Notes: a model not told the origin generated them from the sequence alone. DNA of 64,000 nt from an uncultured Spirochaetota bacterium (GCA_963835575.1 CAWIGG010000002.1:1312001-1376000), one strand, 5' to 3'; shown: positions 49,203-64,000, counted from the stretch's first letter. A program made the numbers and translations.

Positions 49203-50598
49203 GAGTTATAATAGAAAGTTGTGTATAGGAATAAATATTATAAAAAAGATGGCGTACCCTCTATAATTTATTTACGACAATAAACAAAAGGAGGAATACG
49301 CCATATGCCGAAGCACAACGAAGATTTTAAGCTCTTAGAGGCTTTTAATCAAGATGAAACAGTAGAATTTTTATGTCTTGAAGAATTGGCAAGGATCGGG
49401 GCCAGGGAAATAATCAAGAAGGCTCTGGAAGATGAAATTAATGGGTTTCTTCAGGAGAGAGAGCATTTAACTATCGAAGACGGGAGAAAGGCAATAGTAA
49501 GAAATGGGTATCATAAAGCCCGTCAGATTCTCATTGGTGGAGGGGCTATTGATGTATGTATTCCGAGAACAAGGAACCGACTCGGAGGCGACAATTTTCA
49601 AAGCCTAATAGTACCGCCGTATATGAGAAAAAGCCTGAGAATTGAGGAAGCCATTCCATTGTTGTATCTCTATGGAGTCTCAGAGATGGATATGGAGAAT
49701 GCCTTGAGAGGATTGCTTGGTGAAGAAGCGAAAGGATTATCAGCCTCAAGTATAAGCAGAATGAAACAAGGATGGGGTAAAGAATATGATGAGTGGCGGA
49801 CATCCGATTTAAGCGATAAAAAGTATTGCTATATATGGGTTGACGGCATTTACTTCAATGTACAGGGCAGCGAAGACCGTTTATGCACTCTTGTAATGAT
49901 CGGAGCCAATGAGAATGGTGAAAAGGAGATTATTCTTGTTGAAGAAGGTTACAGAGAGAATTCCGAGACTTGGTTAGGGATATTAAGAAACCTAAAAGAA
50001 AAAGGTTTGAAAGGTCCTATTCTTTTTATCGGAGACGGAAGCCTTGGATTCTGGAAAGCAGCCAAAGAAGTATATCCTGAATCCAGATGGCAGAGATGCT
50101 GGGTTCATAAGATAAAGAACATTCTAAACAAGCTGCCCAAAGTATTACAGTCAAAGGCAAAAGAGATGCTTCATGAGATATGCAATGCTCCTGATAAGGA
50201 TAATGCTATCAAAGCTTTTGAATTATTCCAGGCGGTTTTTAATCCTAAATATCCAGCAGCTGTCGAATGTTTAGAAAAAGATTGGGAGCTTATGATCGAA
50301 TTTTATAACTGTCCGGCGGAACATTGGGTACATATCCGTACGACAAACGTAATAGAATCTACCTTCTCTACAGTTCGATTAAGAACTAAAAAGATGAGAG
50401 GCTGCGGAACCAGGGAAACGATTCTAATAATGGTCTATAAATTACTGGATAAGGCATCCAGGCGATGGAGAAAATTAAGAGGTTATGAAAAGATTTGCCT
50501 TGTATTGGAAGGCGCTGTTTTTGAGAACGGAGAGCTTGTAAAAAAGGCAGCATAAAAAAATGAGAGGGTATGTCATACACAACATTTGACAAAAACTC
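49203..50598 (+). mobile_element. IS256-family element, intact
   Basis: Imperfect 24-bp IRs GAGTT...GTTGTGTAT. 9-bp target duplication GAATCTGCG (49194-49202 and 50599-50607). Confidence 0.93.
49305..50555 (+). CDS. IS256 (Mutator) transposase
   Basis: RNGY, YIWVDGIY, GDG.LGFW, QRCWVHK, RTTNVIES. Confidence 0.95.
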   Translation: MPKHNEDFKLLEAFNQDETVEFLCLEELARIGAREIIKKALEDEINGFLQEREHLTIEDGRKAIVRNGYHKARQILIGGGAIDVCIPRTRNRLGGDNFQSLIVPPYMRKSLRIEEAIPLLYLYGVSEMDMENALRGLLGEEAKGLSASSISRMKQGWGKEYDEWRTSDLSDKKYCYIWVDGIYFNVQGSEDRLCTLVMIGANENGEKEIILVEEGYRENSETWLGILRNLKEKGLKGPILFIGDGSLGFWKAAKEVYPESRWQRCWVHKIKNILNKLPKVLQSKAKEMLHEICNAPDKDNAIKAFELFQAVFNPKYPAAVECLEKDWELMIEFYNCPAEHWVHIRTTNVIESTFSTVRLRTKKMRGCGTRETILIMVYKLLDKASRRWRKLRGYEKICLVLEGAVFENGELVKKAA

Positions 50599-50740: not shown

Positions 50741-53700
50741 ATGCACAGCCTCGGCATCGATATCGGTTCGACAAGCCTGAAGCTTGTCCTTCTTGAGGGC
50801 GACAGCATTATATGGAGTTTTACGGCCCCGCATGAAGGCAATTATCAAACCGCGCTCAAGAACGCTCTCCGGAGCCGCAGTTTCCCGCAGGATTTAAAAT
50901 CTATCGCGACCGGCACAGAAGGCAGGCTCTCGCTAAATGTCAATAATGTCATCGAATCGGTCTGCATTGAAGAGGCTTTACGCCATTCAGGCTTATCAGC
51001 CGACGCGGTGATATCACTGGGCGGAGAGGACCTGATCGTCTATACCGTAGATAAGAACAATAAGATCATTACCAGCATCTCCGGCAATAAATGCGCCTCC
51101 GGCACCGGCGAGTTTTTTAAACAGCAGCTCGGCAGGATGAATTTGAGTCTTGAGGATATCCCCGGCATCCCGGATGATTCGAAGGTATGCCAGCTTTCAT
51201 CCCGCTGTTCGGTTTTTATGAAAAGCGACTGCACCCATAAACTCAATAAAAATGAAGCGACGAAAGAGGATATCGTCGTGTCGCTTTCCGATGTAATGGC
51301 GACAAAGGTGATCGACTTTCTCAAAAGGGCCCGAGTATCAAGCGGCCGGGTCCTCTTAACGGGCGGTGTTACACACAACAAATTCATCATCAGGTTTATA
51401 AAAAAGCGTTTCCCGACCATAGATTTTATAGTGCCGGAAACAGCCCCTTATTTTGAAGCCTATGGGGCCGCCATCCTTGCCAGAAAAGCCGGAAGCATCA
51501 TGCCTCCCGCCGGCAGGCTGATCAAACAGAACCGGATTTATTATGAAAGATACCCCGGCCTCTTAACCTCACACGGGAAGGTCACTTTCATTCCTTCCAG
51601 AAAAGGGAAAGTTAAAGACGGCCATGAATACATCCTGGGCGTCGACGGCGGGTCCACTACTACTAAAATCTGCCTGATCGATATTGAGACAAATGAGATA
51701 ACCGCCTCGCATTATGACAGGACGCACGGCGATCCCGTCGCCGCGCTCAAAAAATGCCTGTCTGAGGTAAATAAACAGATAAAAGCGGATATCGGCGATA
51801 AAAAGATCAAAATCTCTCTGGCTTCGGCGACCGGTTCATCCAGGGAAATACTGGGCGTATTTCTGGAAACTCCCGCCGTCTATAACGAAATCATCGCGCA
51901 CGCGGCCGGCACGACTTATTATAATCAGGAGATCGATACTATTTTCGAGATCGGCGGCCAGGACGCCAAATACACCCTTTTAAAGAACAAGGTGCCCATC
52001 GATTACGCGATGAATGAGGCATGCTCGGCCGGCACAGGGTCTTTCCTGGAGGAATCCGCCTCCGGCGACCTGAATATCAAAGAGGCGCGGGATATCGGCG
52101 GCATAGCCGTAAAAGCGGAGGCCCCGCTGAAATTCGGCGAGCACTGCTCGGCTTTTATCAACTCCGACATCCGTAAAGCGATACAGCAGGGCGCAACTAA
52201 GGAAGACATCACCGCGGGTATTGTTTTTTCCATCGTATCCAATTACCTGAACCGCGTCGTGGGCAACAGGACCATCGGCAGTAAAATTTCCCTGCAGGGA
52301 GGCGTCGCCAGGAACCAGGCCGTACCGCTGGCTTTCGCGATGCTTCTCAATAAGGATATTCTTGTGCCGCCGGACCCTGAGCTGATGGGGTGCTTTGGGG
52401 TCGGCATTCTGGCAAAGCAGAAATACAATGACGGCATCCTGGAGAAAACTTCTTTCGATATAGATAAAATAATCAATACCGAAATCATTTATGAAAGGGA
52501 ATTCAAGTGCGGCGCCTGCGATAATTACTGCCCGATCAAAGTGCTGAAGGTCAACGAACATAAATATATGTTCGGAGGCAGATGCAATAAATACACCAAT
52601 CTCAGGAAAAACGCCCCAGTCAATGAAAGCACGGCGAAAGATTATATCGCGATGCGGTCGGAGCTTTTATTCTTTGAATGCGCCCCGAAGCATGAAGAAT
52701 TGAATAAAAAACGCGGTTTTACCATCGGCATCCCGAAGGTCTTTTCAGTCCATACTCTTTATCCGCTCTACGCATGGTTTTTCATGAACTCGGCATTGAA
52801 ACGGTCCTTTCTAAAAACATCTCTCATGAAGGCACTTCCCGGATTGAAAGCGCGTACTGCTACCCCGCGGAGATCGCCCATGGCGCGTTTCAGGACATGA
52901 TCGACCAGGGAACGGATTATATATTCCTTCCTCATTTTAAATTCATGCCCAGTTATGAAAAGACTGTCCATGCGAACTTCTGCCCGATCACACAGGCGCT
53001 GCCCTATTATCTTAAAAAAGCCTTTTCAGAAATACCCTCTGGAAAAATACTCTCCCCTGTTATTTCATTCAATAAAGGTCTTGAAAGCGGTGAGGATTCT
53101 TTTATCGAATTGGCCGGAAATCTCGGTATCGGCATTTCCGAAGCAGTTAAAGCATTTCAGAAAGCCGTTAAAAAACAGAAGAAGTTTTTAGAAAAAGCGT
53201 CGGCCCTCGGCCTGGAAGCGCTGGAAGAATCGAGAAAATCGGATAAGCCTGTAATAGCCGTCCTCGGCAGGCCTTATAACGCCTTCACCCCCGAAGCCAA
53301 CATGAGCATACCGAGGAAATTCACCAGCCGCGGCTTTACGGTTGTCCCTTTTGACATACTCCCTTTCCATGACGAGGAAATTTACGATAATATGTACTGG
53401 TATTACGGCCAGCAGAACATCAAGTCCGGCCGGTTTATAAAAAAAGAACCCAATATCTATCTGACATATATCACCAATTTTTCATGCGCTCCCGATTCAT
53501 TCCTTCTGCATTATATAAAGTGGACCATGGGCGTAAAGCCATTTCTGGTGCTTGAGCTTGACTCCCACACGGCCGACGCCGGGGTAGATACGCGGGTGGA
53601 AGCCTTTCTGGATATCATAGACGGCTACAAATCAAAGTTGAAGTATTTAAAGGATGAAAAATACGATAACGGGCTCAGATTTATAAACAATGGAAAAGAT

Positions 53701-55017
53701 GAGTTTCATATAAAAAATATCCTAACCGGCGAAAAAATTAAAATAAGGAATAATCCCGGAACAAAGCTTCTTCTTCCGAACATGGGCAGGCTTTCCGCCG
53801 AGTTCATCGCGGCCGCCAGCAGAGGAAGCGGCTATAACGCCGAAGCGCTGCCCGTGGCCGACATTCATACGCTTCAACTGGCAAGAAACCTTGCCTCCGG
53901 CAAGGAATGCGTGCCTTCCCTCCTCGTGCTGGGAAGCGTACTGCAGTTTATAAATTCCCCCGGATACAAAAAAGACGAAATATACCTGGTGTTCATTCCG
54001 ATCACAACAGGCCCATGCCGCACAGGGCAGTATTATATATTCTATGAAAACCTTTTCAGGGACCTCAGAATAGACAATGTCGTATTCCTGACCTTAAGTT
54101 CAGATAATTCATACAATGAGCTCGGCCCGAATTTTTCAAGAAACGGTTGGTGGTCAATGATCGTTGCCGATTATATGAAGGATATAGAGATAACCCTCAG
54201 GACTTGCGCCCGGGACCCTGTTGATGCCATGAGAAAATATGACGAACTCTGGCGCTCCATGGTTTCAATAGCTGAAAAAGATATGTCCAAGATTATCCCC
54301 ACGCTTAAGAAAACAGCGATGGAACTGCAAAAAATCCCTCTTAAAAAGAAGCCGGAAGAATGCCCGAAGGTCCTGATAGTCGGCGAAATATATGTCAGGC
54401 GTGATGATTTTGCCGTTGATGAACTGATCCGGCTTTTCAGTAAAAAAGGCATTATCGGTAAAATATCCGGAATTACGGAATGGATTTATTACTGTGATTA
54501 TGTCAGGGAATATCAAATAAAAAAAGAGCTGAAAAAAGAAAAATTCATCCGGAAAATATTTTCAAAACCATTGAGGAACTTGGTTTTTTACAAAATCGAA
54601 CAGCTTTATAAGCATTTTGTTGATTATAAAATCAGAAAAGCCCTGGATGAAAGCAGGCTCCTGCCGCATTATCCCCGCAGCATGTATAAGATCATGAATA
54701 ACGCCAATAATATCTTTGTCGCGGGCGAGCTTAATTCAGAAATTTCAGTATCAAGCGGCGCCGCCGTTACGGCCATGCTGGAAGACTATTCCGGGATCGT
54801 TAATACCTATCCCTTCGCCTGCCTGATTGGAAGGGTCATAGAAGGTCTCATCACGCCCTATTTCAGGGAAAAAAGAATGCCTGTCCTTTCAGTGGAAATT
54901 GACGGCAACCTTTTACCCCCGACAATTATCAATAAACTCGATATCTTCATGCTGAACGTCCTCCGCTACCGCTCAAACCCCGATGCAGAAGACCTGATAG
55001 AGAAAGAGGAAGAATAA
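50741..55017 (+). pseudogene. 2-hydroxyacyl-CoA dehydratase activase-like multidomain protein (two ASKHA ATPase domains plus DUF2229-like domains), split by a frameshift near 52780
   Basis: GIDIGSTS, KCASGTG, GVDGGSTT, EIGGQD, NEACSAGTG. One added T in TGGTTTTTC joins the two ORFs (WFFHELG). Confidence 0.85.
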
Positions 55018-61294: not shown

Positions 61295-61510
61295 TACTTC
61301 TTTTTTTGACAATTATTGAAACGAAGAGTAAAGTATAACCGATATGGAATTTAATAATATTATCAGTTGATTATAAAAAATCCTTTCGTTTTTTTACGGA
61401 TTTTTGTTCTTTTTCCAAGAAAAAAAGTTTCGTTTTTTTAGTAATTTAAGGTGTCTATATATTATGAATAAAAAGAAGGGGGCTTTTTAGTTCATGATAA
61501 GGAACTGAAC

Positions 61511-64000
61511 ATGAAAGATTTTAATTTGATCAAGGATGATTTTTACAAAAACAATTTGTTTAAAAATATTTCCAAACAGAAGGAAATACCGGTCCTCATC
61601 CTTTTTAAACACAAACAGTACAATGCAAGGATGCTCTTTGATTATAAAAAGGGAAACAATCCTTATTTAAACAGCAATAGTGAAATAATCCCGTTTTCAA
61701 ACGGTGAAAAAATACAAATATCGTTTTTTTATAAAGACATCTTTTTTACTTTTGAGACAGCTATTATTGATTCATCCGAAAGCACTTATCATATTCAGAT
61801 GCCTTCCATGATCCATACTTCATCTAAAAGAATGATCAGCCGCTATACATTCGATGAAACTGTAAATAATTCTGTTTCTTTTCCAAACCGTCCTGAATTA
61901 TTCAAGTTAATTGATATCAGTACCGGCGGTATTTCCTTTATTTCAGAGGAAAAATTTCTCCATAAAAATGAAATCGTCAGAAACATATTGATCAAAATAA
62001 ATGATGACCTTGAGGTTTATACTGACGCGGCCGTGGTACACATTAAAACGATTAAAAGCGAATTAATTTACGGATTGACTTTTCATCAGATGGATTGGCC
62101 GGCCTACAGGAAAATCTTTGCCTTTATTTTCAATAAAAAATATCCTAATTTAAAGCTTTTAAGCGAGTTTTCAAATGATGAGGTAATTCATCTCTATGAA
62201 GAATCCCGCCATATCAGCCTGAAATCGAAGGATGAAGCCGATCAATCCTTTTTTAATATAGTCCGGAACCTTGCCAAAATAAAAAACAATCCCATGCTCG
62301 CGTTCAACCTGGTGTATCAAAAAAGCGGTAAACTGCTCACGATCGGCTCCTCTATCAGAATCTATAACCGGAGTTTTTTAGGCCAGCCGCTCCTCACCGC
62401 TCCGGGCGTTACTCTCAATCCCAGGGCAAAAACCGATGTCTATATCGGATTGGCGGACTTCATACTGAGCCATCCCTATTTTAGATATTATATTACCTAT
62501 ATAATCAGGGATTATGAATGGCATCACGATATTTTTAAAAACATGAACGGATTGATCCATAACCGCGGCAAATTCATTTTTGATGAATTACAGCTATTTG
62601 AATGCGATATGGATAAGATGGAATTACCGGACCAATCCGCGGATTTTGAAGCCGAAGTTCTGGACAATCCGGAAGAATTTATCCGTTATTGCGAAGAGAA
62701 AATGCCGGTCCTGGAAGTTCAAAGTTATAACTATGATATTGATAATTTTGATCTTGAAGCGACAAGCCAGATATACCAGATCCTGGATTTTTATCTGACA
62801 AGAAGATTATGGAGGATCAAAAAAAATAACCGAACGACAGCTTTTGCCGTGGCTGAATCATTTCAGAATGATATTACAATCAATAATATAATGGATTCCT
62901 GCAAATTATATTTTATAGAAGGCATCGAGGACATTCAAGAGGTATTAAAAACCGTACTGCCGGTTGTTTCACAGTTCTACAGTCATTATCAAAAAAGAAT
63001 TTTTAATATCATGTTTAAAATACAAAAGAAAGTAATACAGCCGGTTGAACTGCCCGGATTATATAATAAAGGTCCTCTCAGCAGAGTGTTAATGAACAGG
63101 GATGGTCTCTCTCTCTATAAAAACCTGATGAAGGCTAATTTTGAGTATTACACAAAGTATTACCCTCTCAGCCATCCCCAGAAAGGGATCTGGTATATCG
63201 AAAAAATGTATCCGAATACCAGTATCGGGAATATTGCCGGGACAATAAGATTCAAAAGTAATTTTGATTTCAGCATAATAGAAAAAGCTCTTAATATTGC
63301 GATTGAAAAAAACGATGCTTTACGTCTCAGAATAACAGGAGAAGAAGGAGAACCAAAGCAGTATATAGCGGATTATCAATATAAAAGCTTTACCGTTCAT
63401 GATTTCTGTGATAAAGATAAGAGCGAACTTTATCAATGGGAAGATGAAATGACTAAAATCCCATTTGATTTAATCAATTCGGATTTATTTTATTTCGCAC
63501 TGATTAAAATCAGTCAGACCGAGGTTGGTATTTATGCAAAATTTCATCATTTAATCGCCGATGCATGGACAATTATGCTCCTGGCGGAACAGGTTTTCGG
63601 TTATTGTACCAGATTATTAAATAAAGAAGAGATATCACAGGATAATATGCCTTCTTATATTGATTATATTTTAAAAGAGGAAGAATATAAATATTCAAAA
63701 GTATTTGAGGACGATAAAAAATTCTGGAATGAGAAATTCGCATCAATTCCGGAAGGCATGCACTTTAAACCGAGAAGTACATATTTTACAAGCACAGAGG
63801 CTGTGCGAAAAACATTTATTATTCCAAGTAATTTAGCTAATAATATCTATCATTACTGCAAAAAAACCAATATCTCTGTTCAAACTCTTTTTTTGTCCAT
63901 TCTCATAGTATATATAAGCCGCGTGACTATGAAAAACGACATTTCAATCGGCACTCCTGTATTAAACCGTTCCAGCGCAAAGGACAAAGAGACCGCCGGC
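61511..64000 (+). CDS. NRPS-like protein (partial, >830 aa): PilZ domain, unknown domain, starter condensation domain
   Basis: Hand translation is open from ATG 61511 (TAAGGA RBS) to the window end. RMISR and DISTGG are PilZ motifs. YPLSHPQKGIWY, HHLIADAW, DKKFW and IGTPVLNR are condensation-domain motifs. Confidence 0.88.
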   Translation, partial: MKDFNLIKDDFYKNNLFKNISKQKEIPVLILFKHKQYNARMLFDYKKGNNPYLNSNSEIIPFSNGEKIQISFFYKDIFFTFETAIIDSSESTYHIQMPSMIHTSSKRMISRYTFDETVNNSVSFPNRPELFKLIDISTGGISFISEEKFLHKNEIVRNILIKINDDLEVYTDAAVVHIKTIKSELIYGLTFHQMDWPAYRKIFAFIFNKKYPNLKLLSEFSNDEVIHLYEESRHISLKSKDEADQSFFNIVRNLAKIKNNPMLAFNLVYQKSGKLLTIGSSIRIYNRSFLGQPLLTAPGVTLNPRAKTDVYIGLADFILSHPYFRYYITYIIRDYEWHHDIFKNMNGLIHNRGKFIFDELQLFECDMDKMELPDQSADFEAEVLDNPEEFIRYCEEKMPVLEVQSYNYDIDNFDLEATSQIYQILDFYLTRRLWRIKKNNRTTAFAVAESFQNDITINNIMDSCKLYFIEGIEDIQEVLKTVLPVVSQFYSHYQKRIFNIMFKIQKKVIQPVELPGLYNKGPLSRVLMNRDGLSLYKNLMKANFEYYTKYYPLSHPQKGIWYIEKMYPNTSIGNIAGTIRFKSNFDFSIIEKALNIAIEKNDALRLRITGEEGEPKQYIADYQYKSFTVHDFCDKDKSELYQWEDEMTKIPFDLINSDLFYFALIKISQTEVGIYAKFHHLIADAWTIMLLAEQVFGYCTRLLNKEEISQDNMPSYIDYILKEEEYKYSKVFEDDKKFWNEKFASIPEGMHFKPRSTYFTSTEAVRKTFIIPSNLANNIYHYCKKTNISVQTLFLSILIVYISRVTMKNDISIGTPVLNRSSAKDKETAG

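Follow-up and report, generated by a model that had tools for sequence, protein, structure and literature searches.

A gene that runs off the 3' end of the window (the whole 64,000-nucleotide stretch of DNA analysed, C2:1312001-1376000 of the host contig) encodes an NRPS that opens with a PilZN-PilZ unit and a tandem GNAT fold, an architecture that is apparently undescribed. That the PilZ-GNAT-NRPS fusion is real is virtually certain. The comparative evidence suggests that a c-di-GMP site is under selection inside an NRPS, and we give even chances to the fuller proposal, in which c-di-GMP switches lipo-initiation via a degenerate GNAT pair and the product of the family serves as a signal feeding back on c-di-GMP.

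The frame starting at the ATG at 61511 (+) is free of stops to the window end, as the first-pass annotation had claimed, and when it was read onward into the same contig it continued to a gene of 2456 aa ending at C2:1380881, past the window. The domain order PilZN-PilZ-GNAT-GNAT-C-A-T-E-R was assigned from Pfam, NCBIfam, structure search and motifs; PilZ, two condensation-family stretches, AMP-binding, PP-binding and thioester reductase scored over the Pfam/NCBIfam cut-offs, and the second condensation stretch, going by the names given to its motifs, is presumably an E domain. The A-PCP module that had been expected downstream was thus found beyond the window, followed by E and R. The features are:

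61306..61334, + strand: sigma-70-like promoter candidate with 10/12 consensus bases, in the gap 3' of the sugar ABC genes (weak)
61511..64000, + strand: 5' part of the 2456-aa gene (frame, genome continuation, domain searches)
61511..61822, + strand: PilZN (YcgR-N-like) barrel, aa 1-104 (VIA against 5y6h; Pfam PilZNR weak)
61823..62143, + strand: PilZ barrel, aa 105-211 (Pfam, Foldseek, VIA, conservation)
61829-61843, + strand: RxxxR, residues 107-111, within the PilZ barrel
61913-61930, + strand: DxSxGG, residues 135-140, within the PilZ barrel
62144..63139, + strand: predicted tandem GNAT fold, aa 212-543 (AlphaFold, Foldseek, VIA, language-model search)
63158..64000, + strand: condensation domain in first position (starter-type), aa 550-988, truncated at the window end (Pfam, C-domain tree)
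63545-63565, + strand: HHxxxDA of the first C domain (motif)
aa 1008-1517, + strand, beyond the window: A domain (domain searches)
aa 1547-1604, + strand, beyond the window: T domain, GGDSI at 1570 (domain searches)
aa about 1625-2065, + strand, beyond the window: E domain (E-type motifs in the second condensation stretch)
aa 2085-2454, + strand, beyond the window: thioester reductase R (domain searches)

The scan that gave the promoter candidate found 3 sites against 1.4 +/- 1.3 in shuffles, a weak signal. The GC content of the gene is 35% (genome 42%), and tblastn with each domain as query found no second NRPS in the host genome. The core motifs of the C-A-T module are present and the host encodes a PPTase; its genome has 2 PPTase-family genes, 39 GGDEF matches and 14 PilZ matches, and 4 matches to FlaA (0/14 control genomes), which is in line with a spirochaete. 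Nearby in the window lie a Mutator-family (IS256-like) transposase (49305-50555) and the overlapping ORFs of a BcrAD_BadFG ATPase and a DUF2229 protein (50741-55017), which look like one CoA-enzyme activase gene with a frameshift. The radical SAM gene immediately 3' of the NRPS (L001:8886-10544, -) is split into frames of 107 and 424 aa by an in-frame TGA beside homopolymer runs; the pattern resembles mutually compensating indels, introduced either by misassembly or by decay.

A search of aa 1-549 against 1.84 billion representatives gave 106 proteins including the query; once loci had been added, rows not covering the GNAT part dropped and duplicates removed, the set again numbered 106 rows. 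The architecture that the first-pass annotation proposed to seek elsewhere, PilZ with condensation, was common among them: 44 are fused directly to a C domain, so the two parts are not always separate in homologues, and the remainder are 49 stand-alone-sized proteins and 13 larger ones of about 700 aa, the latter being distant relatives of the PilZ-GNAT unit. Distant relatives of about 700 aa are encoded in two other genomes of the host phylum (L028, L029). The fused forms comprise one to three modules, end in R, TE or E, and some have an embedded methyltransferase. The close family occurred in 3/401 genomes of the host phylum, in 23/149 of one Bacillota order and in 5/399 scored genomes of a class-wide sample; the fetched loci came from Clostridium, Eubacteriales, Bacillota, Nitrospiraceae and Brevinematales. 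A metagenome scan yielded 17 pattern matches, none confirmed, and a viral scan and a plasmid search gave no match.

The N-terminus had been read as a YcgR/PilZN-PilZ unit, and the analysis bore this out. Pfam PilZ matched over its cut-off at residues 130-207 (E 4e-8), PilZNR matched weakly (E 0.052), and both motifs lie where they had been placed, at 61829 and 61913. An AlphaFold model of aa 1-549 from a 71-row alignment had a pLDDT of 92.9 and a pTM of 0.90, and its residues 1-212 matched MrkH, YcgR and PP4397 (Foldseek E 2e-11 to 1e-9; VIA Z 14.7-15.3) and also MotI, several of the matched structures having been solved with c-di-GMP. The PilZN barrel aligned with YcgR-N 5y6h (VIA Z 11.8, rmsd 2.8 over 103 aa) and the PilZ barrel with 5y6g (VIA Z 14.5, rmsd 1.9 over 107 aa); the sequence profile found 0 matches in the PDB at E 10, so the fold calls rest on structure search. 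By predicted fold and by motifs the query N-terminus is a member of the PilZN-PilZ fold family.

The query keeps R107/R111 and D135-S137-G140. Where the columns are present, fused rows retain RxxxR in 38/39, at about 25-48% identity to the query, [DN]xSxxG in 32/39 and [DN]xxxxG in 38/39; in the core stand-alone rows (4 distant stand-alone and 7 in-branch non-fused rows being tallied apart) the counts were 35/36, 18/36 and 35/36. The query's PilZN-PilZ part has four further Arg, which only 3/39, 4/43, 6/39 and 21/39 fused relatives retain, and so the retention of both motif Arg is more than chance. Four fusions are without the PilZ barrel, and both motif Arg are lost there too. Judged from this conservation, the PilZN-PilZ unit probably binds c-di-GMP, and that such binding controls the output of the synthetase is a reading we favour with rather less assurance.

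The 330 or so residues that follow had been described as of unknown function; indeed, aa 212-543 had no Pfam or NCBIfam match over cut-off, whereas the model predicts a tandem GNAT fold there. The best VIA match was the histidine acetyltransferase 9emd (Z 13.9, rmsd 4.7 over 262 aa), followed by 3tt2 (Z 11.0) and 6wqb (Z 10.9), all three over 262-270 aa; Foldseek matched tandem GNATs at E down to 7e-10, and a language-model search gave a weak GNAT lead (score 0.88; Acetyltransf_1 on 37% of members). A His at 292/293 (62384-62389) of the first GNAT, whose catalytic role is presumed, occurs in 37/38 core stand-alone rows versus 5/44 fused rows and is absent from the query, and G233-Y234 occur in 30/35 stand-alone versus 0/38 fused rows, the query likewise lacking the family's SGY motif. 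The GNAT pair of the fusions thus appears, somewhat on balance, to be inactive. Since the c-di-GMP motifs are kept and the GNAT His is mostly lost in fusions, the pair is probably a dead scaffold that relays a signal; the simplest reading of the alignments would be ligand site retained, scaffold retained, and GNAT chemistry lost or changed.

It is unlikely, though the best surviving of the alternatives, that the tandem GNAT is still active and c-di-GMP-gated, supplying or loading the acyl starter or acylating the product. Mean column identity of the GNAT part is alike in fused (about 0.45) and stand-alone rows (0.46-0.50), R283 and R431 are kept in 40/44 and 43/44 fused rows, the top tandem-GNAT match (9emd) is a histidine N-acyltransferase, entry 9emp binds N-myristoyl histidine, and PixB and CurA (see below) provide precedent. 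Against this, the two motifs were lost specifically in the fusions, there is no carrier between GNAT and C as in CurA-type loading modules, and sensor-less C-A-T-R relatives exist without any GNAT.

In the preferred reading a degenerate pair acts as relay. Between the last strand of the GNAT pair and the first motif of C lie 26 residues in 29/29 measurable fusions (out of 44). A model of aa 1-988 had a pTM of 0.78 versus the roughly 0.56 that we infer for freely floating halves; because a free hinge should cap pTM near the latter value, the C domain is predicted to pack against the PilZ-GNAT unit.

Gene neighbourhoods were counted at 23 other fused or split loci, of which three contig-edge loci (L013, L078, L095) were excluded to leave 20; these related loci are kin, and their counts overstate independence. 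A membrane histidine kinase lies no more than two genes downstream in 15/20; 4 of these kinases are of HisKA_7TM type, and the other 11 belong to a family in which the sensor region matches nothing in Pfam. A REC-(DUF3369)-HD-GYP regulator is in the same cassette in 9/20. The GYP motif was intact in 16 matched HD-GYP ORFs, where the HD pair rests on Pfam. The synthetase-kinase link is present in both phyla. The main kinase family, found in 34/149 genomes of the Bacillota order, is headed by a membrane sensor region of ~340 aa without a Pfam family (L020:2670-3689 and relatives) ahead of HAMP-HisKA; these kinases occur beside NRPSs and as orphans and are a candidate lipopeptide receptor family. 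Stand-alone units adjoin ThiF, methyltransferase or radical SAM genes and sensors, with an HD-GYP neighbour in 4/11; in one such case (L016:10001-18878) the PilZ-GNAT gene shares an operon-like stretch with genes for a B12 radical SAM protein, a hybrid kinase and a FIST protein, where a comparable circuit may operate without an NRPS.

At the query locus neither the membrane kinase nor an HD-GYP partner adjoins the gene, and this counts against the preferred reading. A convergent radical SAM gene and then a kinase-GAF-PP2C gene lie 3' of it. Searches of the host genome (94% complete) detected neither DUF3369 nor a member of the main kinase family, although 7 HisKA_7TM proteins and many HD-GYP domains are encoded elsewhere in it. 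The PilZ unit might instead bind c-di-GMP and serve in docking or localisation, to the kinase or the flagellar motor, leaving catalysis unchanged. Such a role would suit the closest folds, YcgR, MotI and MrkH, which act through partners, and the kinase genes adjoining most of the related loci; coupling within the protein is suggested instead by the constant distance between GNAT and C and by the packing in the model, the query locus lacks the kinase, and we hold docking to be a still poorer prospect than an active GNAT.

Internal switching by c-di-GMP, the reading we prefer, also has to be set against relatives that do without the sensor. Among 20 loci of the main kinase family away from a unit gene, 9 have a full C-A-T-R synthetase immediately upstream without the sensor unit (8/9 with HD-GYP), 1/20 has an R fragment and 10/20 have no NRPS. 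The sensor-less cassettes (L099, L103, L105, L107-L112) lie mostly at one conserved chromosomal position and differ in their A pockets; an apparent NRPS-kinase fusion in L099 was ruled out, as a stop separates the genes. Beside two PilZ-deleted synthetases (L097, L098) the place of HD-GYP is taken by REC-HDOD and REC-LytTR genes, which looks like a loss of the wiring to c-di-GMP; a third, L096, keeps its HD-GYP neighbour. The existence of sensor-less and PilZ-deleted versions indicates that the sensor is not needed for chemistry. In a quick tree all 44 fused rows fell in one 51-row branch (SH-aLRT 92) nested among stand-alone rows, and the 7 non-fused rows in this branch may be fissions or truncations. 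The sensor-less C domains nested inside the gated ones (quick tree), and forcing the gated C domains together gave a higher likelihood (p-AU 0.757).

These relatives could be taken to mean that a PilZ-GNAT gene was joined to a neighbouring NRPS as a non-regulatory passenger, the product being an ordinary lipo-amino aldehyde (protease inhibitor, surfactant or antibiotic). The persistence of versions without the sensor, the 5/20 fused loci and the query locus that have no adjoining kinase, and the non-fused rows inside the fused branch are compatible with it. A passenger would not be expected to keep RxxxR across such divergent fusions and to let it decay when the barrel is lost, nor does it fit easily with a fusion spanning two phyla, and we rank it slightly below docking.

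The first C domain begins at residue 550/551 (63161), where it had been placed (Pfam Condensation, E 5e-57). The first-pass annotation also likened it to the surfactin SrfAA starter domain. Of that description the first position stood, there being no carrier upstream, and the clade of this domain is separate from internal C domains (support 100) and includes N-terminal C domains; the best PDB match by sequence is an internal C domain, that of tyrocidine (104 bits), with 7c1k, 7c1h and 7c1p at 84-89 bits. Special closeness to SrfAA was not borne out, the surfactin synthetase chains scoring only 52-56 bits. The HHxxxDA in place of HHxxxDG was correctly noted; it is carried by 30/39 gated first C domains, as the norm of the family, and does not signal decay. 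In the fusions at L076:7893-13982 and L077:5779-10575, glyoxalase-like or unclassified domains occupy the position after the first C domain where A would normally lie. The query A pocket (D1230, G1231, T1234, I1273, T1298, A1300, E1324, V1332, V1333) resembles what we take to be a tyrosine pocket, and 28 proteins of the family have 20 distinct first-module pockets.

The query is an NRPS with a terminal reductase, but where the family usually ends in T-R it carries an intervening E, atypical in this position, about 20 residues before R. This T-E-R ending was seen in no other protein. Motif searching turned up three further long proteins with an E domain, all of which stop at E; in one case a second C-A-T-R gene follows, and a deletion within such a pair of an E-ending synthetase and a C-A-T-R gene could have given rise to the query. 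Delivery of the carrier to R may be inefficient or broken in this arrangement, which counts against the preferred reading. By NRPS logic, A would activate one amino acid and load T, the first C domain would couple a fatty acyl donor, E would possibly invert the residue to D, and R would release an N-acyl amino aldehyde or alcohol; the product expected here is thus a one-residue N-acyl (possibly D-) amino aldehyde or alcohol and no surfactin-like peptide.

A chimeric PilZ-C or E-R join from misassembly, to which the likely indel breaks in two nearby genes and the occurrence of the direct E-R join only in the query might point, is very improbable, for 43 further dereplicated proteins share the PilZ-GNAT-C join and a small indel cannot delete a whole module between E and R. 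Neither a stop, a frameshift nor a chimeric join was encountered before 63161. In one DNA sequencing run, none of the 8 identical short pieces listed (of 10) bridges a domain join, and no RNA run was listed as containing the sequence. Judged by the tree, the fusion is old and conserved and no artefact, because all of the fused rows share one branch nested among stand-alone rows.

The mechanism that we favour would run as follows. Binding of c-di-GMP at RxxxR/DxSxGG would reorient PilZN against PilZ; the conservation pattern suggests that this change would be relayed by the degenerate tandem GNAT, with the fixed-length linker holding GNAT to the C domain, and would switch initiation, on being the likelier sign. 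In most relatives the product would probably be a secreted signal, sensed by the adjoining membrane histidine kinase, whose partner REC-DUF3369-HD-GYP would degrade c-di-GMP and so close a feedback loop. The frequent kinase and HD-GYP neighbours and the varied A pockets are what suggest that these enzymes are signal synthases forming a family under feedback from c-di-GMP, and we lean towards a signal role for the product in the family. The query locus would be an orphan synthase, probably acquired, without its cognate kinase. More tentatively, and with the odds on the other side, the fusions may constitute an undescribed family for signalling between cells of anaerobes, namely Clostridia and some spirochaetes, in which NRPSs switched by PilZ and a dead GNAT make strain-specific N-acyl peptide aldehydes or alcohols, each with a dedicated membrane kinase of no known class and an HD-GYP loop, as chemical dialects.

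YcgR, MrkH, PP4397 and MotI act on flagellar motors or DNA. They have the two-barrel fold and both binding motifs in common with query aa 1-212, whereas the query's PilZN-PilZ unit heads a protein that continues into a GNAT pair and an NRPS. Lipid signalling is tied to c-di-GMP turnover elsewhere too: DSF signalling in Xanthomonas reportedly comprises the synthase RpfF, the sensor kinase RpfC and the HD-GYP regulator RpfG (PMC5391125, PMC3609779), to which the cassette of the relatives is alike in this respect. It differs in that the synthase is an NRPS with variable amino-acid pockets and its own putative c-di-GMP sensor, in that the main kinase, compared with RpfC, has a sensor region without a Pfam family, and in that the synthase-kinase-HD-GYP cluster is absent at the query locus and present in relatives. 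In PixB of Myxococcus xanthus, as far as the excerpted account goes, PilZ domains are joined to a GNAT, c-di-GMP is bound in vitro, and the authors propose that binding boosts GNAT activity (PMC8316039); by this description PixB is without an NRPS and needs its own GNAT, whereas the query fusions lack the GNAT signature. The CurA and Apr polyketide loading modules, in the portion of the source consulted, have a GNAT that loads the adjacent ACP (PMC3075265), and so, like the query, begin an assembly line with a GNAT fold; in the query the tandem GNAT abuts the C domain with no carrier between. A clostridial NRPS that produces an N-acylated dipeptidyl alcohol (Li et al., in PMC11063209) is, like the query, from an anaerobe with an N-acylated reduced short peptide product; the summary given there, on which this comparison rests, mentions no PilZ, GNAT or kinase/HD-GYP link.

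NasP is a stand-alone synthase with no NRPS. It is summarised as a cAMP-activated N-acyl amino acid synthase (Clardy and Brady 2007, PMID 17586635; cited in PMC8762209), and on that summary resembles the proposed query in having a second messenger directly gate N-acyl amino acid synthesis, the messenger being cAMP. By analogy, the query would work like a YcgR-type receptor, a second-messenger-gated acyl-amino-acid synthase and an RpfF/C/G-type circuit joined together. No PilZ-NRPS fusion, in these hosts or others, was found in the literature at the level of titles and the start of abstracts, subscription papers and bioRxiv supplements being outside this scope.

Transcription and the priming of carriers are, to our knowledge, the main means by which NRPS output is controlled. 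If an assembly line does contain a second-messenger site, this would be a new layer of NRPS control and a transferable switch for engineering, and, as far as our literature search reaches, the first NRPS with a built-in second-messenger switch. The fused Pseudobacteroides cellulosolvens protein WP_036940527.1, which has both c-di-GMP motifs, and the natural PilZ-deleted versions of Ruminiclostridium cellobioparum form a ready pair for comparing sensor-bearing with barrel-less synthetases. The synthase-kinase-HD-GYP cassette with its variable pockets is a candidate quorum-sensing-like system of cellulolytic clostridia and spirochaetes.
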